From Gracilimonas sp. (lineage in GTDB: Bacteria; Bacteroidota; Rhodothermia; Balneolales; Balneolaceae), in NCBI RefSeq assembly GCF_965227785.1, contig NZ_OZ245785.1, positions 1,446,293-1,510,292 of the forward strand: a stretch of 64,000 bases of DNA. Direction: 5' to 3'. Shown piece by piece: positions 4,758-55,521 of this stretch. A model generated the notes under the pieces. It did not search any database and was not told the DNA's origin. It saw nothing but the letters and a program-made list of their open reading frames with translations. The translations under genes and the position numbers were made by a program. The stretch's first letter is position 1. Every line of letters begins with the position of its first letter.

Positions 4758-5477
4758 ATGAACCTTGATTCAAAAATCGCCATCGTTACCGGAGCCAGCA
4801 GTGGCATTGGAGCCGAATTCAGTAAAATGCTTATCGAAAATGGAGTGGAGGTATATGGACTTGCGCGTAGCCTCGATAAGATGAAGAACCTTCAAAAATC
4901 ACTGGGCGATAAGTTTCATCCCGTAAAAATGGATATCACTGACGCCGATGCATTGGAAGAATGGGTGGACGATACTTTCGATTTAAATCACCTGCCGGAT
5001 ATCCTGATCAATAATGCCGGTGTTATGTATTCCGCTAATGTGGATGACCTGTCCATGAGTGAGTGGCATACGATGATTAATGTTAACCTGAACGGGATTT
5101 TTTATCTCACCCGCCTTATTGTTCCGCTGATGAAAGACAATGAGAATACCTGTCATATCATCAACATTTCATCTATTGCCGGCTTGTTAGGAAACCCTAC
5201 CATCTCCGGATACAACGCCAGCAAGTTCGGCGTACGAGGCTTCAGTGAAGCATTATTTAAGGAACTTCGGTATGATGGCATTAAAGTCACCTGCGTATTT
5301 CCGGGTTCTATCGACACTGATTTGTTTGATAAAATTGATGGTATCGACAACCATCCAAACATGATGAAAACAACCGATATCTCAAGCACAGTGAAGTTCC
5401 TGCTCGAAACGGACGACAATTTTCTGATCAACGAAATCACTATGCGACCGCTGAACCCCAAAGATCCTACCAATTAA
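4758..5477 (+). CDS. SDR family oxidoreductase
   Basis: TGASSGIG cofactor motif, NNAG, and the S...YNASK catalytic triad region. Confidence 0.85.
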   Translation: MNLDSKIAIVTGASSGIGAEFSKMLIENGVEVYGLARSLDKMKNLQKSLGDKFHPVKMDITDADALEEWVDDTFDLNHLPDILINNAGVMYSANVDDLSMSEWHTMINVNLNGIFYLTRLIVPLMKDNENTCHIINISSIAGLLGNPTISGYNASKFGVRGFSEALFKELRYDGIKVTCVFPGSIDTDLFDKIDGIDNHPNMMKTTDISSTVKFLLETDDNFLINEITMRPLNPKDPTN

Positions 5478-5485
5478 GAAACTCA

Positions 5486-5875
5486 ATGAAAAAGCTATTT
5501 CCTCAAGCTGTTATTCTCATCATAATTGTTTTAGTAGGATACGGTTGCATGGGCCCGGAGGAAGCTCCTAAGCCTGATAACCTGATCAGTGAACAAAATT
5601 ACATCGATCTCCTGATCGAAATGCAGCATATTTCTACCTACAGGGATGCCCAACCCGACAGCGTAAACGCTGATTCGCTGAAAGCGTTGGTCTACGATAA
5701 ATTTGGTATAACCGAAGAGCAGTTTCTAAACTCTCATACATTTTACCAAAAGCAGGTAGAGCGCCAATTAATCAGGGTACAGGAAGTGATTCGCCAGCTG
5801 GAAAATGAGGAGCAGTATATCCAGGTGCATATTGATTCCGTGAAGGCAGCAAAGAGAGATTCAACGGGGGGATAG
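5486..5875 (+). CDS. Small lipoprotein, DUF4296-like
   Basis: Lipobox LVGYGC. The helical body resembles Bacteroidota DUF4296 proteins; this is recalled from memory and not searched. Confidence 0.55.
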   Translation: MKKLFPQAVILIIIVLVGYGCMGPEEAPKPDNLISEQNYIDLLIEMQHISTYRDAQPDSVNADSLKALVYDKFGITEEQFLNSHTFYQKQVERQLIRVQEVIRQLENEEQYIQVHIDSVKAAKRDSTGG

Positions 5876-5914
5876 GTGTTAGGTTTTAGGGGCAAGGTTT
5901 TAGGTGTTAGGGGT
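5873..5914. repeat. Left arm of a heptamer-phased inverted repeat: six TAGGNNT-type units
   Basis: TAGGTGT TAGGTTT TAGGGGC AAGGTTT TAGGTGT TAGGGGT read in exact 7-nt phase. The first TAG is the stop of the 5486-5875 gene. Confidence 0.9.
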
Positions 5915-5917
5915 AGG

Positions 5918-6262
5918 TCACTTGTTTAAAAGGGTGTGTAGCATTTTTTGAACTTCGGTATTGAATTCCAGAGCGGAGTCAAGCTTATCGCTTTCAATAA
6001 TTTGATTTTCCTTAAGCAACAATAATTGGGTTTCAAGCTCAAAACTGGAACCAAGTGATATTCTCAGAAATCTTTTAAAATCTTTACGGCTTTCTCTGCT
6101 ACAAGCTTCAGCAATATTGGAAGGAACCGAAATTGATGATCTTATAATCTGATCTCTGTAAGTGTATCTCTCAACTTTTGGCAGTTCTTTAATGATGACA
6201 TGTACAATTGAAGTCATTTCCATGCTTCGCTGCCAAACTATAAGCTTTTTGAAATTTTTCAT
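5918..6262 (-). CDS. Four-helix-bundle protein (23S rRNA intervening-sequence protein family)
   Basis: 114 aa. LIVWQRSMEM..., PKVERYTYRDQIIRSSISVPSNIAEA, DFKRFLRISLGSSFELETQLLL are hallmark motifs of this family. Confidence 0.85.
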   Translation of the reverse strand: MKNFKKLIVWQRSMEMTSIVHVIIKELPKVERYTYRDQIIRSSISVPSNIAEACSRESRKDFKRFLRISLGSSFELETQLLLLKENQIIESDKLDSALEFNTEVQKMLHTLLNK

Positions 6263-6359
6263 CAGATCTACTCTTTGGCTTGTTATTCAGTAAGAGCTCT
6301 GAAAACCCAATTCCTTACAAAACTAAATAGTCTTTACTCAAATAGAAGCATGCACAAAC

Positions 6360-6408
6360 ACCACTAACACCTAAAACCTTGTCCCTAAAACCTAACCTAC
6401 CCTAACCT
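6360..6408. repeat. Right arm (reverse-complement units) of the TAGGNNT inverted repeat
   Basis: 6367-6394 ACACCTAAAACCTTGTCCCTAAAACCTA is the reverse complement of 5880-5907 with 1 mismatch (27/28). The arm overlaps the last codons and stop of recQ. Confidence 0.9.
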
Positions 6409-8328
6409 ACAATAATAGCCCGGTTTAGAGGGCACCGTGGTCACTTTATCCTCACGTATCAAAAACTGAAGGGCCTGCTGTACTTTTCGTTTAGACCGCC
6501 TGGTTGAACTGCATAGTTGAGATATCGTCTTTTCCTCCGATTTAAGTTCATCGTAAATAGCTTTTATGTCCTCATCAGTTGGATTAGCGTCTTCTGAGCA
6601 CCCATTTTTCAGGCAATTATCGCAGTGGCCGCAGGGCTCTGCATCCGTATCTCCAAAGTAATTTCGAAGATATACCTCCCGGCACTGATCGGTTAAAATA
6701 TATCCGTGCATATGTTCAAGCTTACGGAACAGGTTGTTTCGGTGCGACTCCACCTCTTTCTTTGTCAGTGGTAAGTTTTTGGAACGAGCTTCCAGCACTT
6801 TGACCAGGCTTCGTTGTTTATGCATCTCAAAAACCAATACCTGATCGTTCTGCATCAGCACGTTTAATCCTTTTACCAGGGCATTTCTGCGTATGCCGAG
6901 TTTATCCAACACATATTCTTCATCCAGCTGCACCATTTCTTTAAAGGCCAAACCCCCAAACATCCGCTCCAGCTTATCGGTGAATTCAGCCTTCTCCTCG
7001 TTCTTACACTTTTCCCGGAAAGTCTTCATCGCGTTTTGGCTGAGGGTAAACTGCACGCTTACCGCCGGCTTTACTTCTTCCTGCATAGCTATCACATCAA
7101 ACTGATCCAGCAGTCGCATGGCTGCACGTGCTTTTCCGTATTTAAGCTTTCCCCTTTTTTTGATCTGTTCGATGTCGAATGACATGGACTCTTCCATTTC
7201 TGATCCTACCGCCAGGTGAAAACTGTCGCATAAAACCTGATAGACGTGGTTCAGTTCATCCAACGTCGGATAACCCTGATCTATGCGGTCGTCGGCTTTG
7301 TGGTAGTCCGATTCTCTATAAAGTAAAATTGGAAAACTTTCTTCCCCATCCCGACCGGCCCGGCCTGCTTCCTGGTAGTAGGCCTCCAGTGAATACGGCA
7401 TCTCTTCATGAATTACATACCGGCAGTTGGGTTTATCAATCCCCATCCCGAAAGCATTAGTTGCAGCTACCAGTGGTGTTTCCCCTGAGATCCATCGCTG
7501 CTGAATGGCTTTACGTTCTTCTGATCCTACCCCTGCATGGTAGGCCTCGGTTTTTATACCCATTCGGGAAAACCGCTCGGCCTGCAACTCACAGTTCTTG
7601 CGGGTTCCGCCGTAAATAAGTCCATCTCCTTTCCGGGCTCCCTTTTTTACCGACTCCTCCAGCTTCTTTTTCTTATTGGGAGCATTAACTACCCACCATT
7701 TTAAATTAGGACGAGAAAATCCCCGGGAAATGACGTTAGCATCTTCAAAACCAATTGAATCCAAAATGTCTTTTTGAACCTCCGGCGTGGCTGTTGCCGT
7801 AAGGGCAATCCAACGGGTTTGATCGGCAATGGGTTCCAGCGATTCTCTTATATCCCGATAACTGGGTCGGAAATCATGCCCCCATTCACTAATACAATGT
7901 GCTTCATCAACTGCTACCAGGTCGATATTCAACCGTGGCATTTCTGCCTCCCAAAGTGTGGTTTTCAGTCGCTCCGGGGCGCAATACAACAGCTTGTACA
8001 TTCCATTTCTGGCATTCACTAACCGCTGCTCGACCTCATAAGATGGAATAGTACTGTTTATAAATGTGGCCGAAACACCTTTGGCCTTCAGTTGCTGAAC
8101 CTGGTCTTGCATCAGGGCGACAAGCGGTGAGATTACCAGCGTCATACCCTCAAAAACAGTAGCCGGAACCTGGTAACAAAGGGATTTCCCGCCACCGGTT
8201 GGAAAAAGCACCAGTGTATCCAACCCATCAAAAACAGAACGGACTACCTCATCCTGTCCTGGACGAAATCCATCAAACCCCCAAATTTTTTTTAAATTTA
8301 ATTCTGCTTTCTGAAAATAATCCTGCAA
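6397..8328 (-). CDS. recQ: RecQ-family ATP-dependent DNA helicase
   Basis: PTGGGKSLCYQ Walker A, DEAHCISEWGHDFRPSY, Zn-binding CGHCDNC, C-terminal winged-helix-like tail. Confidence 0.9.
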   Translation of the reverse strand: MQDYFQKAELNLKKIWGFDGFRPGQDEVVRSVFDGLDTLVLFPTGGGKSLCYQVPATVFEGMTLVISPLVALMQDQVQQLKAKGVSATFINSTIPSYEVEQRLVNARNGMYKLLYCAPERLKTTLWEAEMPRLNIDLVAVDEAHCISEWGHDFRPSYRDIRESLEPIADQTRWIALTATATPEVQKDILDSIGFEDANVISRGFSRPNLKWWVVNAPNKKKKLEESVKKGARKGDGLIYGGTRKNCELQAERFSRMGIKTEAYHAGVGSEERKAIQQRWISGETPLVAATNAFGMGIDKPNCRYVIHEEMPYSLEAYYQEAGRAGRDGEESFPILLYRESDYHKADDRIDQGYPTLDELNHVYQVLCDSFHLAVGSEMEESMSFDIEQIKKRGKLKYGKARAAMRLLDQFDVIAMQEEVKPAVSVQFTLSQNAMKTFREKCKNEEKAEFTDKLERMFGGLAFKEMVQLDEEYVLDKLGIRRNALVKGLNVLMQNDQVLVFEMHKQRSLVKVLEARSKNLPLTKKEVESHRNNLFRKLEHMHGYILTDQCREVYLRNYFGDTDAEPCGHCDNCLKNGCSEDANPTDEDIKAIYDELKSEEKTISQLCSSTRRSKRKVQQALQFLIREDKVTTVPSKPGYYCRLG

Positions 8329-26731: not shown

Positions 26732-26888
26732 GAATGATGAAGTGAGGAGTGAAAGGGTGATTGGGTGATATTGATTCATATGTCAATTCTGATATACTGA
26801 GCTGTTCAGTTATAGTTATTTCGGAGTTATCCTTAAGATGACATCAACTCTCACTTTATCACTCATCACTCTATCACCCTATCCTCCC
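26732..26888. repeat. GTGA-type heptamer/octamer palindromic element without ORF
   Basis: Left arm GAAGTGA GGAGTGA AAGGGTGA TTGGGTGA; right arm TCACTTTA TCACTCA TCACTCTA TCACCCTA; 78-nt centre. Confidence 0.8.
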
Positions 26889-26961: not shown

Positions 26962-27843
26962 ATGATTATATCAATGACCGGCTTTGGTCGCGGAGAAGCC
27001 TCTGAAAATGGCATCACGGCCACGGTTGAAATCAAATCACTAAACAGTCGCTATCTGGATCTTAGTATTCGCCTTCCTCAGCGTTTGCAAGACAAAGAAC
27101 TGCAGGTTAAGGAGCTGGTTCAGAAAACGATTAATCGTGGTAAACTGAACATTACGGTTTACCTGTCGGAATCAGAAACAGGTGAACCTTCTATCAGAGT
27201 GGATGAAAAGAAAGTGAAAGGTTACTCCAGGATTCTGGATAATCTAAGAGAAGCAGCCGGCATTTCAGATCCCATTTCCATCAAAGACATAACCCAGTTT
27301 GGTGATGTTTTTATTAATGAAGAAGAAGACGAAGAAGTACTTGAGAAAAAATGGGAAGTAGTTGAAAAGGCACTTTCAGAAGCCGTGGAATCTCTTCTTA
27401 AAATGAGAACTCAGGAAGGCAGTCAGCTTAAAAACGATCTGGTGGATCGGATCGAATTCATCGATGAAAATCTCGAAATCATTACTAAAGAAACATCAGG
27501 ACGTGCACAAGAGGCTCGTGATAAGCTGTTGGAACGAATCAACAACCTGATTGAAGAAGATAAAATTGACCCGGAACGCCTTGAATTGGAAGTGGCTGTT
27601 CTTGTAGACAAGATGGATGTAACGGAGGAAATTGTACGCCTGCGTTCACACCTAAAATTCTTTATTGAAGCTGTTGAACAACCTGAACCGGCCGGGCGAA
27701 GACTCAATTTCCTGACCCAGGAAATTAACCGAGAGCTAAACACTATCGGTTCGAAGGCCAACAACTCTGATATTGCCCAATATGTGGTGAAATGCAAAGA
27801 AGCGCTGGAGCAAATCCGGGAACAAGTTCAAAACGTCGAATAA
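26962..27843 (+). CDS. yicC: YicC family protein
   Basis: SMTGFGRGE N-terminus, C-terminal EINRELNTIGSKAN motif. Confidence 0.85.
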   Translation: MIISMTGFGRGEASENGITATVEIKSLNSRYLDLSIRLPQRLQDKELQVKELVQKTINRGKLNITVYLSESETGEPSIRVDEKKVKGYSRILDNLREAAGISDPISIKDITQFGDVFINEEEDEEVLEKKWEVVEKALSEAVESLLKMRTQEGSQLKNDLVDRIEFIDENLEIITKETSGRAQEARDKLLERINNLIEEDKIDPERLELEVAVLVDKMDVTEEIVRLRSHLKFFIEAVEQPEPAGRRLNFLTQEINRELNTIGSKANNSDIAQYVVKCKEALEQIREQVQNVE

Positions 27844-27844
27844 A

Positions 27845-27910
27845 GTAGATTTAAGACGCAAGATGTAAGATTTAAAGAAAATTTATCTTACATCTTGTGT
27901 TTTATGTCTC
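27845..27910. repeat. AGANNNA heptamer palindrome containing a 13-bp perfect hairpin
   Basis: AGATTTA AGACGCA AGATGTA AGATTTA in phase. Stem 27859-27871 CAAGATGTAAGAT pairs with 27885-27897 ATCTTACATCTTG. Confidence 0.85.
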
Positions 27911-27923
27911 AGTACTACTATAT

Positions 27924-28496
27924 ATGAAAAAAGGTAAAGTCATCATATTGGTTGCACCCAGCGGAGGCGGAAAAACGACCCTCGCGCGCCGGCTTTTTAA
28001 AGAGTTTGAAGATCTTAAGTTCTCAGTATCAGCAACCACACGCCCTGCTCGGGAAGGTGAAATAGATGGAAAACACTATTATTTCCTCTCTGAGGCTGAT
28101 TTTGACCAGAAAAAAGCTGACGGCGAGTTTCTGGAATGGGAGGAATTCTATAGGGGAAAGAAATACGGCACACTGCGTTCAGAAGTTGATAAAAAACTAA
28201 ATTCAGGCTATTTTGTTCTGCTTGACATCGAAGTAAAAGGTGCGGTTAATATCAAAAAGATTTACGGAGACGAAAGTCTCAGTTTATTTATTAAACCGCC
28301 TTCTATAGATGTTTTGAAGCAGCGCTTGCTTGCCCGCGGAACCGAAGATGATGAAACACTGGCTTTGCGGCTCGAACGCGCCAAAGAAGAACTTACATAT
28401 GCTGATCAATTCGATCAGGTTATTATAAATGACAATTTGGATACGGCTTATGCAGAGGTTAAGAAAGCCGTTGTCGAATTCATGAATCAAAACTGA
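27924..28496 (+). CDS. gmk: Guanylate kinase (start moved to ATG 27924)
   Basis: APSGGGKTT P-loop, SATTRPAREGE, YYF. The track start at 27897 lies inside the upstream hairpin. Confidence 0.9.
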   Translation: MKKGKVIILVAPSGGGKTTLARRLFKEFEDLKFSVSATTRPAREGEIDGKHYYFLSEADFDQKKADGEFLEWEEFYRGKKYGTLRSEVDKKLNSGYFVLLDIEVKGAVNIKKIYGDESLSLFIKPPSIDVLKQRLLARGTEDDETLALRLERAKEELTYADQFDQVIINDNLDTAYAEVKKAVVEFMNQN

Positions 28497-28800: not shown

Positions 28801-29997
28801 ATGCTCTCCGGTAAACGCATCATTCTTGGTGTTACCGGAGGAATTGCAGCCTATAAAGCTGCTTTTTTACTCAGAGAATTTCAAAAAGCGGGAGCCGAAG
28901 TCCGCGTCACCATGACGCCTTCAGCCACCCGCTTTGTTGGTTTAGAAACCTTTGCCTCCCTTTCCGGCCATGAAGTAGCCGTAGACATTTTTCCTGATGA
29001 AGGAGATTCCAGCGACTGGACCCGCCACATAAACTGGGGCGAATGGGCCGATCTTTTCGTAATTGCTCCCTGTACGGCTAACACGCTCGCCAAAATCGCT
29101 ACCGGACTTTCTGACAACATGCTTACCAGCACCGTACTGGCTGCTCGTTGCCCAATACTGATTTGCCCGACCATGGACGGGGAGATGTATGAATCGCCCG
29201 GAGTTTCTGATAACCTGAAAAAGGTGCAGGAGAATGGATATCATGTTTTAGAACCGGAATCAGGTTACCTGGCCAGTGGATTACATGGAAAAGGACGGTT
29301 ACCGGAAATAGAATCCATCCTCGAAAAAACTTCTGATATCATTGGATCCATTGAAGGTCCATTAGAAGGAAAAAAAGTGGTTGTTACAGCCGGTCCGACC
29401 CGGGAGCATATCGATCCTGTTCGATTTATTTCCAACCCAAGTTCGGGTAAGATGGGATCGGCAATGGCACAAGCAGCACAAAGCCTTGGGGCGGACGTCA
29501 CCCTGATTCATGGCCCGCTTTCCATCCCCACTCCCGAGGGTATTCATTTTGTAAAAATTACCAGTTCGGCTGATTTATTTGAAGCCGTTAAAGAATATGC
29601 TGAAGCGGATGTAATCATTATGGCAGCTGCGGTCTCGGACTTCACCCCTGAACAAGTCCATCAACATAAAGTAAAAAAGGAAAGCGCCGGCAATGAGATT
29701 AAACTGAAGAGAACACAGGATATTTTAGCCTGGCTGGGTGAGCATAAACAAGATGGGCAGGTTTTGATCGGTTTTGCCATGGAAACCGAAAACCTGATCG
29801 AAAACGCAACTTCCAAGCTCAATAAGAAGAATGCCGATTTTATTATTGCCAATTCTTTAAATGACAAAGATGCCGGTTTTGAAGCGGACACCAATGCCGT
29901 TCATCTGTTGAGTAAAAACTCCGAACAAAAATTTCAGGGAAGCAAAAAAGACATTTCCATCGAAATTCTGAATACCATTTTTAGAAGAGATGAGTGA
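28801..29997 (+). CDS. coaBC: Bifunctional phosphopantothenoylcysteine decarboxylase / phosphopantothenate-cysteine ligase
   Basis: [14 protein letters not shown]-like [25 protein letters not shown]. Confidence 0.9.
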
Positions 29998-30131
29998 TGA
30001 AGTGATAGGTGACGAGTAAAAAGTGAAATTATTTGAGGAGAACCTCCTGACATTCTTATCTGTTCAGATTAAGGACCTATACTCAGCTTATTATTTTTAA
30101 CCAATTCACCCTATCACTTTATCACCTTTCA
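29990..30131. repeat. GTGA-type heptamer palindromic element, second copy
   Basis: Left arm GAGTGA TGAAGTGA TAGGTGA CGAGTAA AAAGTGA; right arm TTCACCCTA TCACTTTA TCACCTT TCAC. Shares the exact words CACTTTATCAC and TCACCCTATC with 26849-26888. The arms overlap the stops of coaBC and of the 30129 gene. Confidence 0.8.
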
Positions 30132-31277
30132 CTGGCACATCCATTTGTACACCCGGTAGGTTTTGGCAATCTCACAACCCAATGCCTCCAGGCTTCGACG
30201 CATAATCCAGTTCTTTTCGCTGACAAACCCTCCCTCCAGTACTTTTAGATTCGGGTAATGTTTTTTTGTCCACCTGAAGCCTTCTATAAATACCAAAGCC
30301 TCTAACCCTCTTCCCCGAAAACGTGGGTCTGTCCCAAAAGCCAGAGGACGAAATTTTTGAGCTCTTTTTTTGAAACCAAGCAGATGGTAAAGCTGCCACC
30401 ACTTTAGCGTACCTCCGGTTTTAGCTGATATTTCATGTAAATCAGGTACGCTTACCAAAAATGAAGCCGGCTCTCCATTTACAAAAGCAATAGGTGAAGT
30501 TTCCGGCATTAGCACCGGCTTCAGCTTTTTGATCATTTGCCGGATCGTTTGCTGAGTGATACCGATGAACTCTTCTTCCCTTTCTCCAACTACCTGATCA
30601 CTGAAAGCCCGGTTGTAGATCTGACGAATCATCTCTCCGTCCCGCTGCAAGTTCTTCTTGTCAATAGGGCGGACTTCAACATGATCTTTTGATTTCAATC
30701 GTTCAGTAATTCTGAGCAAACGTTCCGGCAGAGCCTGCTCCAAATCCAGCTGATACATGTACACATCATCAAATTTTTCGGGATCGGTTTCTTCAATCAG
30801 CTCTTCGTAGTACTCCTGATGATATAGCATTCCATATACATTGTGATCTTCAAACCCGCTGATCTGAATTCCCCAAAAGGTGTCGTTCTCTCCAAAATTA
30901 ATGGGGCCCCGAAATCCTGCATAACCCCGTTCCCGATGCCACTTTCTTGCAAAACTGATCATTGATTCAGCAATGCCGGGAATATTTTCCATCTCTATAA
31001 AACCAACACCACCAAGCTTTGGATCATATCGCTCATCTTTTTCGGGATCAGCAAAAACCGCAAACCGGCCCACAGCATTGCCATTCTTCAAAACCAGAAA
31101 TCGCTCACATTCCCCTCCTTTCCGAAACCGTTCGTTTTTCTTACGACTGAATACATTTTCCACTTCAAACCGAAAAGGCGACCGATACCACTTGCTGTCT
31201 TTATACAGCCGTTCGGGAAGCCGGTGAAATTCGTCTATATGTTGTTGAGCTTCAATTTTTTGAATCTGAAAAGACAT
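30129..31277 (-). CDS. Uncharacterised GNAT-fold-like acyltransferase family protein (about 380 aa)
   Basis: Pattern LYKDSKWYRSPF...FLVLKNGNAVGRFAVF...GFIEM...FRGPINFGEND resembles a Bacteroidota acyltransferase-like family; recalled only. Confidence 0.55.
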   Translation of the reverse strand: MSFQIQKIEAQQHIDEFHRLPERLYKDSKWYRSPFRFEVENVFSRKKNERFRKGGECERFLVLKNGNAVGRFAVFADPEKDERYDPKLGGVGFIEMENIPGIAESMISFARKWHRERGYAGFRGPINFGENDTFWGIQISGFEDHNVYGMLYHQEYYEELIEETDPEKFDDVYMYQLDLEQALPERLLRITERLKSKDHVEVRPIDKKNLQRDGEMIRQIYNRAFSDQVVGEREEEFIGITQQTIRQMIKKLKPVLMPETSPIAFVNGEPASFLVSVPDLHEISAKTGGTLKWWQLYHLLGFKKRAQKFRPLAFGTDPRFRGRGLEALVFIEGFRWTKKHYPNLKVLEGGFVSEKNWIMRRSLEALGCEIAKTYRVYKWMCQ

Positions 31278-50171: not shown

Positions 50172-51284
50172 ATGAATACTACTGAAATTGCCCAAAAAAC
50201 CGACCTTAAAGCATTAACCAAAGAAGAGCTTACCCATTTTTGTAAAGAGCTGGGCTTACAGAGCTTTCGCTCCGACCAGATTTTCCAATGGCTTTACCAA
50301 AAAGGGGTTTCTGATTTTGAAGAAATGACGAATCTCTCTAAAGATCTCAGGGAAAAACTTCGTGAAATCGCTACCATCAATCGTATTAAACCGGTTCAGC
50401 AGCAGGAAAGTAAAGACGGTACCATTAAGTTTCTTTTTAAGCTAAACGATCCCGAAGAGGATTATAAAGTTGAAGCTGTTTTAATCCCGGACTTTTTTGC
50501 TGACGGAGCCGCTCGCCGGCTTACCGTTTGTGTGTCTTCCCAGGTTGGGTGTGTTTTTGGATGTGCCTTCTGTGCAACCGGAAAAATGGGGCTTTTCCGC
50601 AACCTGACCCACGGTGAAATTGTAGATCAGGTGCAATACATCAACGAGCTGGCCGAAGAAAAGTATGGCAAGAAAATCACTAACATTGTGTATATGGGGA
50701 TGGGCGAACCGCTACACAACTATAAAGCCATCACCAATTCAGCCCATATCATTTCAGATCCGCTAAGCATTGAGCTTTCCCCAAAACGAATTACGGTTTC
50801 CACCGTTGGGCTGACCAAGCAGATTAAAAAACTGGCTGATGATCAGGAGGAGTTTAACCTGGCTATTTCCCTTCACGCACCTACAGACGTAAAGCGGGAT
50901 AAGATTATGCCTATCAACAGCTCCATGAACCTGGAAAGCCTGGAAGATGCCGTTAAATATTATTACAAGGCTACTGAGCGATCCATTACCTACGAATACC
51001 TGCTTTTCGACAACTTTAATGACAGCCCCCAGGACGCCCGTGATTTAGCTAAAATTGTAAAGTGGGTGCCCAGCAAGGTGAATATCATTATGTATAACAA
51101 TGTAGCCGGTGTGGAGCTTCAGCGAGCAAGAGAAGACCGGTTGGACAATTTTATGCGTGAACTTATCAAAAATGATGTACGGGCAACTGTTCGAAGAAGT
51201 CGGGGTGATGATATTGACGCCGGCTGTGGTCAACTGGCTATTCGGGAAGGAGCTCCCAAAGGCAAAACGATGGCGAAGAAGTAA
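50172..51284 (+). CDS. rlmN: 23S rRNA/tRNA (adenine-C2)-methyltransferase RlmN
   Basis: Radical SAM CVFGCAFCATG, GMGEPL; C-terminal GDDIDAGCGQL. Confidence 0.9.
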   Translation: MNTTEIAQKTDLKALTKEELTHFCKELGLQSFRSDQIFQWLYQKGVSDFEEMTNLSKDLREKLREIATINRIKPVQQQESKDGTIKFLFKLNDPEEDYKVEAVLIPDFFADGAARRLTVCVSSQVGCVFGCAFCATGKMGLFRNLTHGEIVDQVQYINELAEEKYGKKITNIVYMGMGEPLHNYKAITNSAHIISDPLSIELSPKRITVSTVGLTKQIKKLADDQEEFNLAISLHAPTDVKRDKIMPINSSMNLESLEDAVKYYYKATERSITYEYLLFDNFNDSPQDARDLAKIVKWVPSKVNIIMYNNVAGVELQRAREDRLDNFMRELIKNDVRATVRRSRGDDIDAGCGQLAIREGAPKGKTMAKK

Positions 51285-51294
51285 GATATAGTTT

Positions 51295-51371
51295 TCAGGA
51301 GTCAGGAGTCAGAATTCAGTACTCAGAATACAGAATTCTGACTCCTGTTTTCTGAGTTCTGAATTCTCTTC
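51295..51371. repeat. Eleven in-phase heptamers: six (T/A)CAGNNN units, then five (T/C)CTGNNN-type units, palindromic about the 51336/51337 junction (inside GAATTC 51333-51338)
   Basis: TCAGGAG TCAGGAG TCAGAAT TCAGTAC TCAGAAT ACAGAAT | TCTGACT CCTGTTT TCTGAGT TCTGAAT TCTCTTC. Fills the rlmN/lepB convergent spacer. Confidence 0.9.
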
Positions 51372-51374
51372 CCT

Positions 51375-52478
51375 CTAATCAATCATCGTAAAAATTCGCT
51401 CGAAGCGTGGCACCCAGTTGTCGGTGGAGAACCATACGATAGATGCTTTTCCGATAACATGATCACTTGGTACAAAGCCCCAGAAACGGGAGTCCTGACT
51501 GTTATCGCGGTTATCTCCCATCGCAAAGTAATAATCCTGCTTAATGGTATAGGAATTTGTCTCTTCCCCGTTGATAAAGATCTTTCCGCTTTCTCTCCTG
51601 AGTTCGTTCTTTTCGTATCGCTCAATGATATCTTTATAGATGAACCAGTTATCATTGGTGATTTGAACTTCCTGTCCTTCAAACGGTATCACGATTTCAG
51701 GGAGTTGATCTGAATTGTTGAATGCCCTTGAAAAATCTCCCGAACTCTGCACATAATTTCGATCTACACTGCCCTCAGGTGTCACATTCAAAAACATGGT
51801 ATCCACTTCAGCCCATCCGCTAACAGTTGAAGCCACATCATCTGTCATATTCACCACATAGGTATTGTTGTTGGTGTAACCGATGAGTTCTCCGCCAACC
51901 GATTCCATTTTAGCATTACTCAGGCGTACTCTCTCTGCCATTCGCACCACATAATGTCGCTGTACACCTTCATGCTGCACCGCTTTTTCTCCGTTGATGT
52001 AAAGGATTTTGTCCTGGATTGAGATGGTATCTCCGGGAATAGCTACAGCTCTTTTGATATAATTTGTTTTTTGGGAGACAGGCTTTACTTCCCACGGCAC
52101 ATTAAATACAAAAATATCGTTTCGTTCTACATCACGGAAACCAGGCAGTCGGGTCCATGGAAGCTGAACACCTGGCACGCACCATCCCTGCAAAAAAGGC
52201 ACACACAATCCCATGGGGGTTCTGGGACCGTAGGTTACATTGGATACGATGAGCAAGTCACCCGTCATCAGTGTTTTCTCCATAGAAGGAGTGGGGATCT
52301 TGTACGACCCGAACAGAAAAGCCCTAAGAATAGCCGCAGCAATAAACGCAAAGACTATGGCATCTACCCACTCTCGCAGCCATGATTTAGCCTTCTTATT
52401 TTCTTCTTCTTTCTTTTCCTTCCTTTTCTTCCAATATGAGCTGATTCCCTGCTCTTCGGGATTTTTATTTTCTTCCAA
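51375..52478 (-). CDS. lepB: Signal peptidase I
   Basis: IPTPSMEKTL (Ser box), YIKRAVAIPGD (Lys box), GDNRDNSQDSRFWGFV. Confidence 0.85.
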   Translation of the reverse strand: MEENKNPEEQGISSYWKKRKEKKEEENKKAKSWLREWVDAIVFAFIAAAILRAFLFGSYKIPTPSMEKTLMTGDLLIVSNVTYGPRTPMGLCVPFLQGWCVPGVQLPWTRLPGFRDVERNDIFVFNVPWEVKPVSQKTNYIKRAVAIPGDTISIQDKILYINGEKAVQHEGVQRHYVVRMAERVRLSNAKMESVGGELIGYTNNNTYVVNMTDDVASTVSGWAEVDTMFLNVTPEGSVDRNYVQSSGDFSRAFNNSDQLPEIVIPFEGQEVQITNDNWFIYKDIIERYEKNELRRESGKIFINGEETNSYTIKQDYYFAMGDNRDNSQDSRFWGFVPSDHVIGKASIVWFSTDNWVPRFERIFTMID

Positions 52479-54975: not shown

Positions 54976-55050
54976 AGTTATTCGTTATTCGAATTATCGA
55001 AATAGTTAACCATTCCAACTAAAAAGTGTAATCTGATTACGAATAACGAA
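54976..55050. repeat. CGTTATT heptamer array plus its inverted copy, downstream of hisE
   Basis: AGTTATT CGTTATT CGAATTA TCGAAAT. TTCGTTATTCG (54981-54991) is the exact reverse complement of CGAATAACGAA (55040-55050). Confidence 0.8.
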
Positions 55051-55051
55051 A

Positions 55052-55402
55052 TCACTCTCCGATGTGCTTGTGGGTACCTTTGTCGTGCCGTTTACGCAGC
55101 CTTTTTATAACTTTGTGAAGGGGAATTTCTTTTTCTGCAAGCAACAGCATGAGGTGAAAAATCAGATCTGCCGCCTCGTTGATCGTCTCTTTATCTTTGG
55201 TATTCTTTGAAGCGATTACAGTTTCAACGGCTTCTTCTCCGACTTTTTGGGCTATTTTATCAATGCCTTTTTTGTACATGGATGTAGTGTAGGAACCATC
55301 CGGCATTTCAGACTTTCTGTCGTAGAGCAATTCTTCCAACTCTTTCAGAAATTTCAAGTCCTTTTTTGTCAGTGTTTTAATATCAGCCATTTCTAAACTC
55401 AT
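55052..55402 (-). CDS. hisE: Stand-alone phosphoribosyl-ATP pyrophosphohydrolase-like protein (HisE / MazG-type all-alpha NTP-PPase)
   Basis: SYTTSMYKKGIDKIAQKVGEEAVETVIA...EAADLIFHLMLLL...VIKRLRKRH matches the HisE signature. Confidence 0.8.
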   Translation of the reverse strand: MSLEMADIKTLTKKDLKFLKELEELLYDRKSEMPDGSYTTSMYKKGIDKIAQKVGEEAVETVIASKNTKDKETINEAADLIFHLMLLLAEKEIPLHKVIKRLRKRHDKGTHKHIGE

Positions 55403-55487: not shown

Positions 55488-55521
55488 TCTCGTTATTCGT
55501 TATTCAGTCGTTGGTCGTTGG
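55488..55521. repeat. CGTTATT / TCGTTGG heptamer array upstream of hisE
   Basis: CGTTATT CGTTATT CAG TCGTTGG TCGTTGG. TCGTTATTCG (55490-55499) is inverted relative to 55040-55050. Confidence 0.8.

Follow-up and report, generated by a model that had tools for sequence, protein, structure and literature searches.

The locus and its inverted heptamer arrays

A small gene for a four-helix-bundle (4HB) protein lies between two host genes in a 64,000-nt stretch of contig NZ_OZ245785.1 of Gracilimonas sp. This whole stretch is referred to here as the window, and all coordinates are relative to its start. The 4HB gene, an open reading frame (ORF) of 114 codons, is bracketed by two arrays of tandem heptamers that are inverted copies of one another, a layout that recalls the intervening sequences (IVSs) of 23S rRNA. 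A DUF4296 gene and a gene for a RecQ-family helicase converge on this cassette (Table 1). The helicase scored above the TIGR00614 cut-off and below that of the RecQ equivalog.

The core of the inverted repeat, located by a repeat search, pairs 5878-5914 with 6360-6396, with 35 of 37 nt complementary (95%) and 445 nt between the arms. Runner-up inverted pairs in 5000-7500 were just 19-20 nt long and 75-79% matched, and alignment of the upstream flank with the reverse complement of the downstream flank gave z = 22.6 against shuffles. A preliminary description of this DNA had reported a 27/28 match between 5880-5907 and 6367-6394; direct reading confirmed that match, now contained within the wider core. 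Both arms are tandem arrays of the degenerate heptamer TAGGTKT (at 5873-5913, TRF reported period 7 with unit TAGGTGT, plus period 21). The left arm holds about 5.5 heptamers (TAGGTGT, TAGGTTT, TAGGGGC, AAGGTTT, TAGGTGT, TAGGGGT), and its plus strand is rich in G and poor in C. The right array continues beyond the core to 6408 and thereby supplies the last three codons (RLG) and the TAG stop of recQ. At the opposite end, the TAG stop of the DUF4296 gene (5873-5875) doubles as the opening of the first heptamer of the left array, and the TGA stop of the 4HB gene directly adjoins the left arm. At up to 2 mismatches, the motif TAGGTKTTAGGKKT occurs 11 times in the window (2.4 expected), with 7 of the 11 copies in the two arms; the strong copies all lie inside them.

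The minimum-free-energy fold of the sense RNA forms a long terminal stem (z = -5.8). An Rfam scan of 5700-6600 at E values up to 5 came back empty; neither arms nor leader belong to a described RNA family. A scan for sigma-70 promoters and intrinsic terminators returned nothing useful within the cassette, and no sigma-70-type match on the leader's own strand. Within the leader, a motif at 6288-6323 (sense TTTTGTAAGGAATTGGGTTTTCAGAGCTCTTACTG) is kept in all Gracilimonas cassettes at two loci and may be a promoter, while the arm-proximal 40 nt or so are hypervariable. We considered and rejected a hairpin formed by GTAAG...CTTAC in the leader; its 3' half reads CTAAC in G. tropica with no compensating change, so that a sequence motif is more likely than a helix.

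Table 1. Features of the cassette and its two neighbours, in window coordinates
Feature	Position	Strand	Basis or remark
DUF4296 gene, left neighbour	5486..5875	+	PF14129, E = 5e-10
Left arm	5876..5914		Heptamer array; left edge 5875/5876 set by empty-site comparison
4HB gene, 114 aa	5918..6262	-	PF05635 / TIGR02436
Leader between 5' arm and ATG, 97 nt	6263..6359	-	Alignment of cassettes
Right arm	6360..6408		Complementary heptamer array; edge 6408/6409 from empty site L174
RecQ-family helicase gene, right neighbour	6397..8328	-	TIGR00614, 389.5 bits (cut-off 219.8)

The four-helix-bundle protein

The ORF matched PF05635 at 115.5 bits (cut-off 33.8) and TIGR02436 at 113.8 bits (cut-off 24), which bears out its earlier assignment to the four-helix-bundle family of 23S rRNA IVSs. 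The family profile matched Protein Data Bank (PDB) entry 2gsc (XCC0516, five chains) at E = 4e-29 and also 2rld, again with five chains; by analogy with these structures, the protein would form a homopentameric ring of four-helix bundles. The family motif GxxRxxxSxxxNxxE (Lin et al. 2006, as quoted in PMC3936711) is present as R41, S45, N49, and E52 (QIIRSSISVPSNIAE), the first G being Q in this clade. In the family alignment S45, N49, and E52 are invariant and R41 is nearly so. Compared with the relatives L001, L172, and L173 (see below), the ORF has a dN/dS of 0.06-0.09; by this measure it is a functional gene under strong purifying selection. A tblastn search against phages gave no match.

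Avd forms a pentameric four-helix-bundle barrel, and the preliminary description had drawn attention to the shared fold. One reading of the locus is a remnant of a diversity-generating retroelement (DGR), the ORF being an Avd gene that lost its reverse transcriptase (RT). The ORF does match two Avd models weakly (bAvd PF22296, 28.8 bits; DivGenRetAVD NF033474, 26.5 bits), but both scores fall under the curated cut-offs of 40 and 80 bits, respectively. There is no RT match in the 64 kb, no template/variable repeat pair, and no long direct repeat in 5000-7500, and the RT-less cassette is conserved at recQ and at a second locus across the genus. The resemblance to Avd holds at the level of the family and not as membership. 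On the model cut-offs and the absence of RT, a DGR origin can be all but dismissed here. The 61 window ORFs that reach 110 aa or more were all scanned against Pfam, which found only housekeeping genes and no RT, integrase, transposase, or invertase, in line with what had been stated earlier for the first three.

An empty site and the boundaries of the insert

Neighbourhoods of relatives were recovered through DUF4296 and 4HB homologues; a contig scan based on RecQ was swamped by the generic EAHCISEW pattern, and L012 and L013 were the only useful relatives to come from it. In another Gracilimonas (L174), with neighbour proteins 86% identical to those of the window, the DUF4296-recQ junction is empty. 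It is likewise empty in the more distant L012 and L013. The spacer in L174 measures 44 nt from the DUF4296 TAG to the recQ Cys codon (35 nt from stop to stop) and carries an ordinary 9-bp terminator-type hairpin (AGAGGATGG...CCATCCTCT). When the occupied site is set against this empty one, homology ends directly after the DUF4296 TAG and restarts at ACAATAATA. These breakpoints place the insert, as judged by this comparison, at 5876-6408 (533 bp). No target-site duplication was found at the junctions relative to L174, and the old 44-nt spacer with its terminator hairpin is absent from the occupied site, i.e., it was replaced.

The empty site substantiates the earlier proposal that the element was inserted between two convergent genes. 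A companion claim, that the element defines the 3' ends of both neighbours, stands for recQ and fails for DUF4296, the TAG of which is native since the same TAG occupies the same position in L174. The recQ tail beyond ...PGYYC, namely RLG and the stop, is derived from the insert. Reading up to the stop codon, recQ ends in CRLG in the window and L172, CLL in L173, CKI in the empty L174, RVI in L006, and LLLESGA in L012, such that the ending PGYYCRLG of the window corresponds to PGYYCKI where the repeat is absent. The 4HB gene was not seen without repeats at orthologous loci; L001, L006, L172, and L173 all have the arrays.

Orientation and variation among relatives

Taking DUF4296 as the plus strand, we find the 4HB gene on the minus strand in the window and L001, and on the plus strand in L006-L011, L172, and L173. 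The window interior aligns to L006 only as its reverse complement, while the flanks align forward. Opposite orientations are also found between L001 and L173, whose neighbours are 97% identical and whose 4HB genes differ by a dS of 0.06, and between the window and L172. From these comparisons the cassette was inverted at least once and probably twice, two being the minimum with L006 as the outgroup. L001 is a short metagenome (Logan) contig that ends inside an arm, and of the orientations listed this is the least secure; an artefact of the de Bruijn graph was judged unlikely in this case because perfect identity between the arms extends over fewer than 31 nt. In the flipped relatives the cassette is co-oriented with DUF4296. 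The co-orientation with recQ, also noted in the preliminary description, is thus true of the window and is not a fixed property.

Some details sit poorly with a simple inversion. Some 40 nt that separate the 5' arm from the leader motif cluster according to orientation (window with L001; L172 with L173), against the phylogeny of the coding sequences. This segment (window 6324-6359; L001 38-80; L172 3927-3970; L173 3927-3972) is unrelated between L001 and L173 despite their coding dS of 0.06, and suggests an imperfect flip or an exchange of alleles between strains. In L006, the boundary on the recQ side is shifted by one codon, another misfit with a clean flip. The 4HB protein of L006 is 76% identical to that of the window, no closer than the paralogue at the other locus (77%), and an independent insertion at the same junction is therefore possible for that lineage.

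Presence of the cassette in both orientations in close relatives, with two or more flips within a small clade, is what might be expected of an invertible switch (inverton), the flipping of which would alter 4HB expression or direct antisense RNA against the neighbours; the break of Logan contig L001 inside an arm would also fit. Yet the 61 window ORFs include no invertase or recombinase, although the rest of the genome could encode one, and each sampled lineage keeps to one orientation (the six places shown for P0004 are all plus). Symmetric arms at a convergent junction would also make the two orientations alike to the cassette, and the segment by the 5' arm that differs between orientations is unlike the product of a clean flip. 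We regard a switch as very unlikely.

Arm length and unit order vary between close relatives. Variant units (e.g., GGGGC versus GAAGC) occur in both arms of one element, which indicates that the two arms change in concert.

A second cassette locus is found in Gracilimonas, where the order is SUI1 (+), 4HB (+), and a phage-type metallopeptidase (-), again a convergent junction. This locus is kept in G. tropica, in Gracilimonas sp. Q87, and in metagenome-assembled genomes (L002 5850-6380; L182 2880-3400; L183 2880-3400). Its arms are shorter and more degenerate, and its leader motif is the same as at the recQ locus.

Inverted arrays at distant homologues

Scanning metagenomes with the family alignment gave 80 loci, with 35-54% protein identity to the 4HB protein of the window. 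To each testable locus we applied a flank test, in which the 300 nt upstream of the gene were compared with the reverse complement of the 250 nt downstream at a threshold score of at least 36. Inverted flanks were detected at 45 of 71 testable 4HB genes (63%), compared with 1 of 98 control genes (1%) on the same contigs (Fisher p = 3e-21), and the inverted arrangement beat the direct one 41 to 3. The best flanking arrays had period 7 or 14 in 100 instances and period 8 or 16 in 25. More than half of the arrays of the period-7/8 type (142/267) lay within 200 nt of a 4HB gene; expressed as density, there were 3.3 arrays per kb within 300 nt of a 4HB gene versus 0.46 per kb elsewhere, a 7-fold difference. 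The array unit varies by locus (TAGGGAC, AGTCAGT, GAGATTT, AGACAAA, AGTGGGA, AGGCACA, AGGTAAC, and others); it is lineage-specific and changes with the protein lineage. AG occupies one fixed phase in 92 of 113 arrays, the inward-reading strand contains 9% C, and the modal length is 4 units. This G-first polarity is a property of the inverted repeat and, by symmetry, is independent of ORF orientation. By crude ORF calls, 66 loci had an upstream neighbour co-oriented with the 4HB gene and 7 had a divergent one; the gap from stop to ATG had a median of 81 nt. None of the 40 loci scanned for an rRNA context had one. Judged by these loci, 4HB genes bracketed by inverted (AGNNNNN)n arrays, typically of 4-5 units, are a widespread class that extends across phyla.

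These frequencies bear on a simpler explanation, that the arms are a generic, slippage-made repeat hairpin serving as terminator or mRNA stabiliser at gene ends, with the 4HB gene as incidental cargo. Hairpins of inverted heptamers without an ORF do occur at two other convergent junctions of the window (51294-51367 and 29984-30133, described below) and an inverted pair without a 4HB gene is found in Xanthomonas (below); moreover, the cassette took the place of an ordinary terminator hairpin. A generic hairpin is nonetheless difficult to reconcile with the contrast between 4HB genes and same-contig controls, with the crowding of arrays beside 4HB genes, and with arms that accompany the gene to loci as different as DUF4296/recQ, SUI1/metallopeptidase, accB/accC, and rRNA. 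We consider it improbable.

Cassettes in named organisms and published repeats

In Xanthomonas campestris and Rhodanobacter, the XCC0516 orthologue lies between accB and accC and is co-oriented with both. Arrays of GGGAATC or GGGATTC start just past the accB stop, and the complementary array reaches the accC ATG. These 4HB cassettes (L176 2423-2875 in Xanthomonas campestris; L180 2483-2940 in Rhodanobacter soli) represent two families of one order. The C-rich 3' arm meets the accC ATG directly (MLDKIVIANRGE...) and there is no Shine-Dalgarno sequence, which poses the puzzle of how accC is translated. The groES-groEL interval of Xanthomonas also holds an inverted repeat pair, here with no 4HB gene. 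Rehm et al. (2015; PMC4692102) described 186 GGGAATC arrays in the Xanthomonas campestris genome and studied them as G-quadruplex formers; the four-helix-bundle family goes unmentioned there. The 5' arm of the XCC0516 cassette is repeat #15 of their supplement. As a general explanation for the arrays, G-quadruplex formation was rejected, because most units are without G-runs (e.g., AGTCAGT, AGACAAA, GAGATTT).

Cyanobacterial plasmids carry further copies. On Nostoc punctiforme plasmid pNPUN02 (L186), the 4HB gene is flanked by AGTCAGG arrays and their complement. On Pseudanabaena galeata plasmid pPg_01 (L187 1070-1690) it lies between cas6 and cas4, a placement that agrees with an earlier note of the family in cas loci (PMC3936711). 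On plasmid gamma of Nostoc sp. PCC 7120 (L185 1068-1700), the 3' array is clear (CTTCTGC / CCTCTGC) and no matching 5' arm is seen; an ISL3 transposase gene immediately upstream may have disrupted it. The 5' arm of one metagenome cassette (L143 2770-3000) mixes GGGGATT units with TTGGTCA units, the latter being a cyanobacterial STRR unit. GGGGATT is the Nostoc repeat of Rehm et al. From this mixed arm there is a hint that the well-known heptamer repeats of cyanobacteria are part of the same phenomenon.

A published parallel within rRNA is the 23S IVS of Coxiella, in which a terminal stem of 28 bp is accompanied by tandem GACAGAT heptamers, variable in number, next to the S23p ORF, and RNase III cuts at the first repeat (PMC4990558). 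This parallel strengthens the earlier suggestion of an IVS-like architecture in an mRNA context. It would seem that the 23S IVSs that contain an S23p ORF share this layout, set within rRNA.

Other heptamer structures in the window

The window contains heptamer structures besides the cassette. At 51294-51367 a hairpin consists wholly of inverted heptamers (AGTCAGG / AGTCAGA / ATTCAGT, then the complement) with no ORF inside. It takes up the 90-nt spacer that separates an RlmN-like gene (50172-51284, +) from a convergent signal peptidase gene (51375-52478, -), and its unit is the same as that around the 4HB gene on pNPUN02. At 29984-30133, inverted arrays of the AGTGATR type overlap the 3' ends of a coaBC-like gene (28801-29997, +) and an unnamed ORF (30129-31277, -). 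About 90 nt without an ORF separate these arrays, so that the layout is that of a 4HB cassette minus the gene; it may be a decayed or cargo-less derivative of one.

Two more arrays, at 26847-26883 and 27847-27875, are not inverted copies of one another. A solo AGATGTA x4 array fills the 53-nt spacer from a YicC-like endoribonuclease gene (26962-27843) to the guanylate kinase gene (27897-28496), and an 8-mer array (TCACTCTA) lies upstream of yicC. Finally, GTTATTC / TCGTTAT arrays at 54977-55050 and 55490-55521 flank a 117-aa ORF (55052-55402, -). The left of these makes a small hairpin with ACGAATAACGAAA, and the unit is without the AG of the 4HB cassettes.

Interpretation of the cassette

On balance, and by a modest lean, we read the element as a compact, self-contained IVS-type cassette inserted in the terminator spacer between the convergent DUF4296 and recQ-family genes. 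The proposed course of events is as follows. The cassette would be transcribed, at least in part, by read-through from an upstream host gene, and a convergent junction offers such a gene in either orientation. Transcription linked to the host would account for the near-constant co-orientation with the upstream gene, and both orientations perhaps occur at the present junction because it satisfies that rule either way. In the transcript, the arms are predicted to pair into a stem of at least 35 bp. By analogy with the IVSs of Coxiella, Leptospira, and Salmonella, RNase III would cut this stem and part the cassette RNA from the host RNA, and such a separation would let the insert be tolerated in essential operons, at gene 3' ends, and in rRNA. 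As DNA, the inverted arms would recombine with one another, which would both invert the cassette, as seen in its differing orientation between close relatives, and keep the arms alike. Slippage of heptamers would be the likely cause of the differences in arm length among relatives.

Several observations weigh against this reading. Clear arms are missing at 22 of 71 distant loci. The Xanthomonas arms mismatch at each seventh position (26/30), and the Pseudanabaena copy is flanked by direct arrays (AAAAGCT x16 upstream, AAAAGCC x10 downstream); a perfect double-stranded RNA stem is therefore not universal. Among arm mismatches across 51 loci, G·U pairs numbered 55 and A·C pairs 74 on the sense strand, i.e., no G·U excess, in a test made noisy by the ambiguous register of tandem arrays. 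The pairing of the arms may thus be kept by homogenisation at the DNA level and not by selection on an RNA stem; recombination between the arms as DNA may keep them alike, consistent with the inversions. Read-through, for its part, is possibly unneeded at this locus, because the leader motif may be an internal promoter.

The lack of a wobble signature is also in favour of a different reading, in which protein and repeat are a cognate pair akin to the repetitive extragenic palindromic (REP) sequences and their RAYT genes. The 4HB pentamer would bind a lineage-specific family of dispersed AGNNNNN arrays (DNA or RNA), with the cassette as a master copy bracketed by its own unit, and the arms would matter as protein-binding sites, not as an RNase III stem. 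Arrays of period 7 with the same unit (at most 1 mismatch) were found elsewhere on the cassettes' own contigs 12 times, against 1.8 expected and a maximum of 7 in 500 permutations. Some same-unit arrays (e.g., in L115) are far from any 4HB gene, and a second 4HB gene occurs in 3 of 80 loci. The 186 GGGAATC arrays of Xanthomonas campestris have the unit that flanks XCC0516 (PMC4692102). That the unit changes with the protein lineage also fits, as do the modal arm length of 4-5 units, which matches the five chains of PDB 2gsc, and the three further heptamer structures without an ORF in the window. Avd, which is related to the 4HB proteins, binds nucleic acid and reverse transcriptase. Set against these points, standalone PF05635 proteins have no known catalytic or binding activity; the TAGGTKT unit is confined to the cassette within the 64-kb window, where the other heptamer structures use different units; and units shared along a contig may reflect common descent or slippage-prone sequence. 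We think this reading rather unlikely, and advance only tentatively the idea that PF05635 proteins may be the missing partner of lineage-specific heptamer families such as the GGGAATC repeats of Xanthomonas, the heptamers of Nostoc and other cyanobacteria, and the AGNNNNN arrays. If it were true, a pentamer would recognise its own heptamer arrays between cistrons, at gene ends, and in rRNA inserts, and the classic 23S rRNA IVSs would be a special case of a general protein-plus-repeat system.

Several elements of the preferred IVS-type reading were already known, including IVSs that combine an S23p ORF with a terminal stem, the broad occurrence of PF05635, and heptamers in the Coxiella IVS, in Xanthomonas, and in Nostoc. 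Our literature search was incomplete and a prior description is possible, but we found none of the association between PF05635 and inverted, AG-phased heptamers outside rRNA; in the same search, operon-embedded co-oriented placement, gain and loss, and inversion polymorphism were likewise not found described. The S23p ORF in rRNA IVSs has been a curiosity for some thirty years, its family annotated only as 'four helix bundle protein', and the over-representation of heptanucleotide tandem repeats in some bacteria had been reported without explanation. The present locus and its relatives tie the two together, with the gene and its inverted arrays as one unit that has come and gone at gene junctions, turned around between close relatives, and lasted in essential operons (accB-accC of Xanthomonadales) and in rRNA.

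Comparison with known systems

The GGGAATC repeats of Xanthomonas and the GGGGAYT repeats of Nostoc (PMC4692102) resemble the present arms as degenerate heptamer arrays, most often of about 4 units, that are mostly intergenic, lie near the 3' end of the upstream gene, and often form convergent inverted pairs. They differ in that no tie to a four-helix-bundle gene was drawn there, and in that G-quadruplex potential is not general among the arrays considered here.

With invertons and MITE-like elements, the cassette shares terminal inverted repeats, both orientations among relatives (between genomes), and presence/absence polymorphism. It departs from them in having no recombinase or transposase in the window, no target-site duplication, and arms that are tandem arrays with a unit that varies by lineage. 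Avd (bAvd) belongs to the same fold superfamily; the ORF nevertheless falls below both Avd cut-offs and is accompanied by neither RT nor template/variable repeats. The REP/RAYT systems consist of one small gene flanked in inverted orientation by a short repeat that is dispersed in intergenic regions of the same genome. A single flanked gene is common to both; dispersal of the flanking unit was seen on other contigs and in Xanthomonas, and not in the 64-kb window. Here the protein is a four-helix bundle without HUH/Y1 nuclease motifs, the repeats are tandem heptamers as opposed to palindromic REP sequences, and a relation in trans is hypothetical.

Another close system is the 23S rRNA IVS carrying an S23p ORF, known from Leptospira, Coxiella burnetii, and others (Ralph and McClelland 1993; PMC4990558). 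The present cassette differs from it in lying between two protein-coding genes (DUF4296 and RecQ-family) and not in rRNA, where IVSs occupy helix 25 or 45 of the 23S gene, in an ORF under strong purifying selection where that of Coxiella was reported as decaying and probably not expressed, in occurring in both orientations among relatives, and in that cleavage by RNase III is proposed by analogy. The two are alike in several ways: the protein belongs to the same PF05635 family, the insert falls in one size class (about 430-540 nt), a long terminal stem (28 bp in Coxiella; 35/37 here) closes a loop that contains the ORF, the ORF is adjoined by tandem heptamers that vary in copy number, and the insert is co-oriented with the host transcript, here that of recQ.

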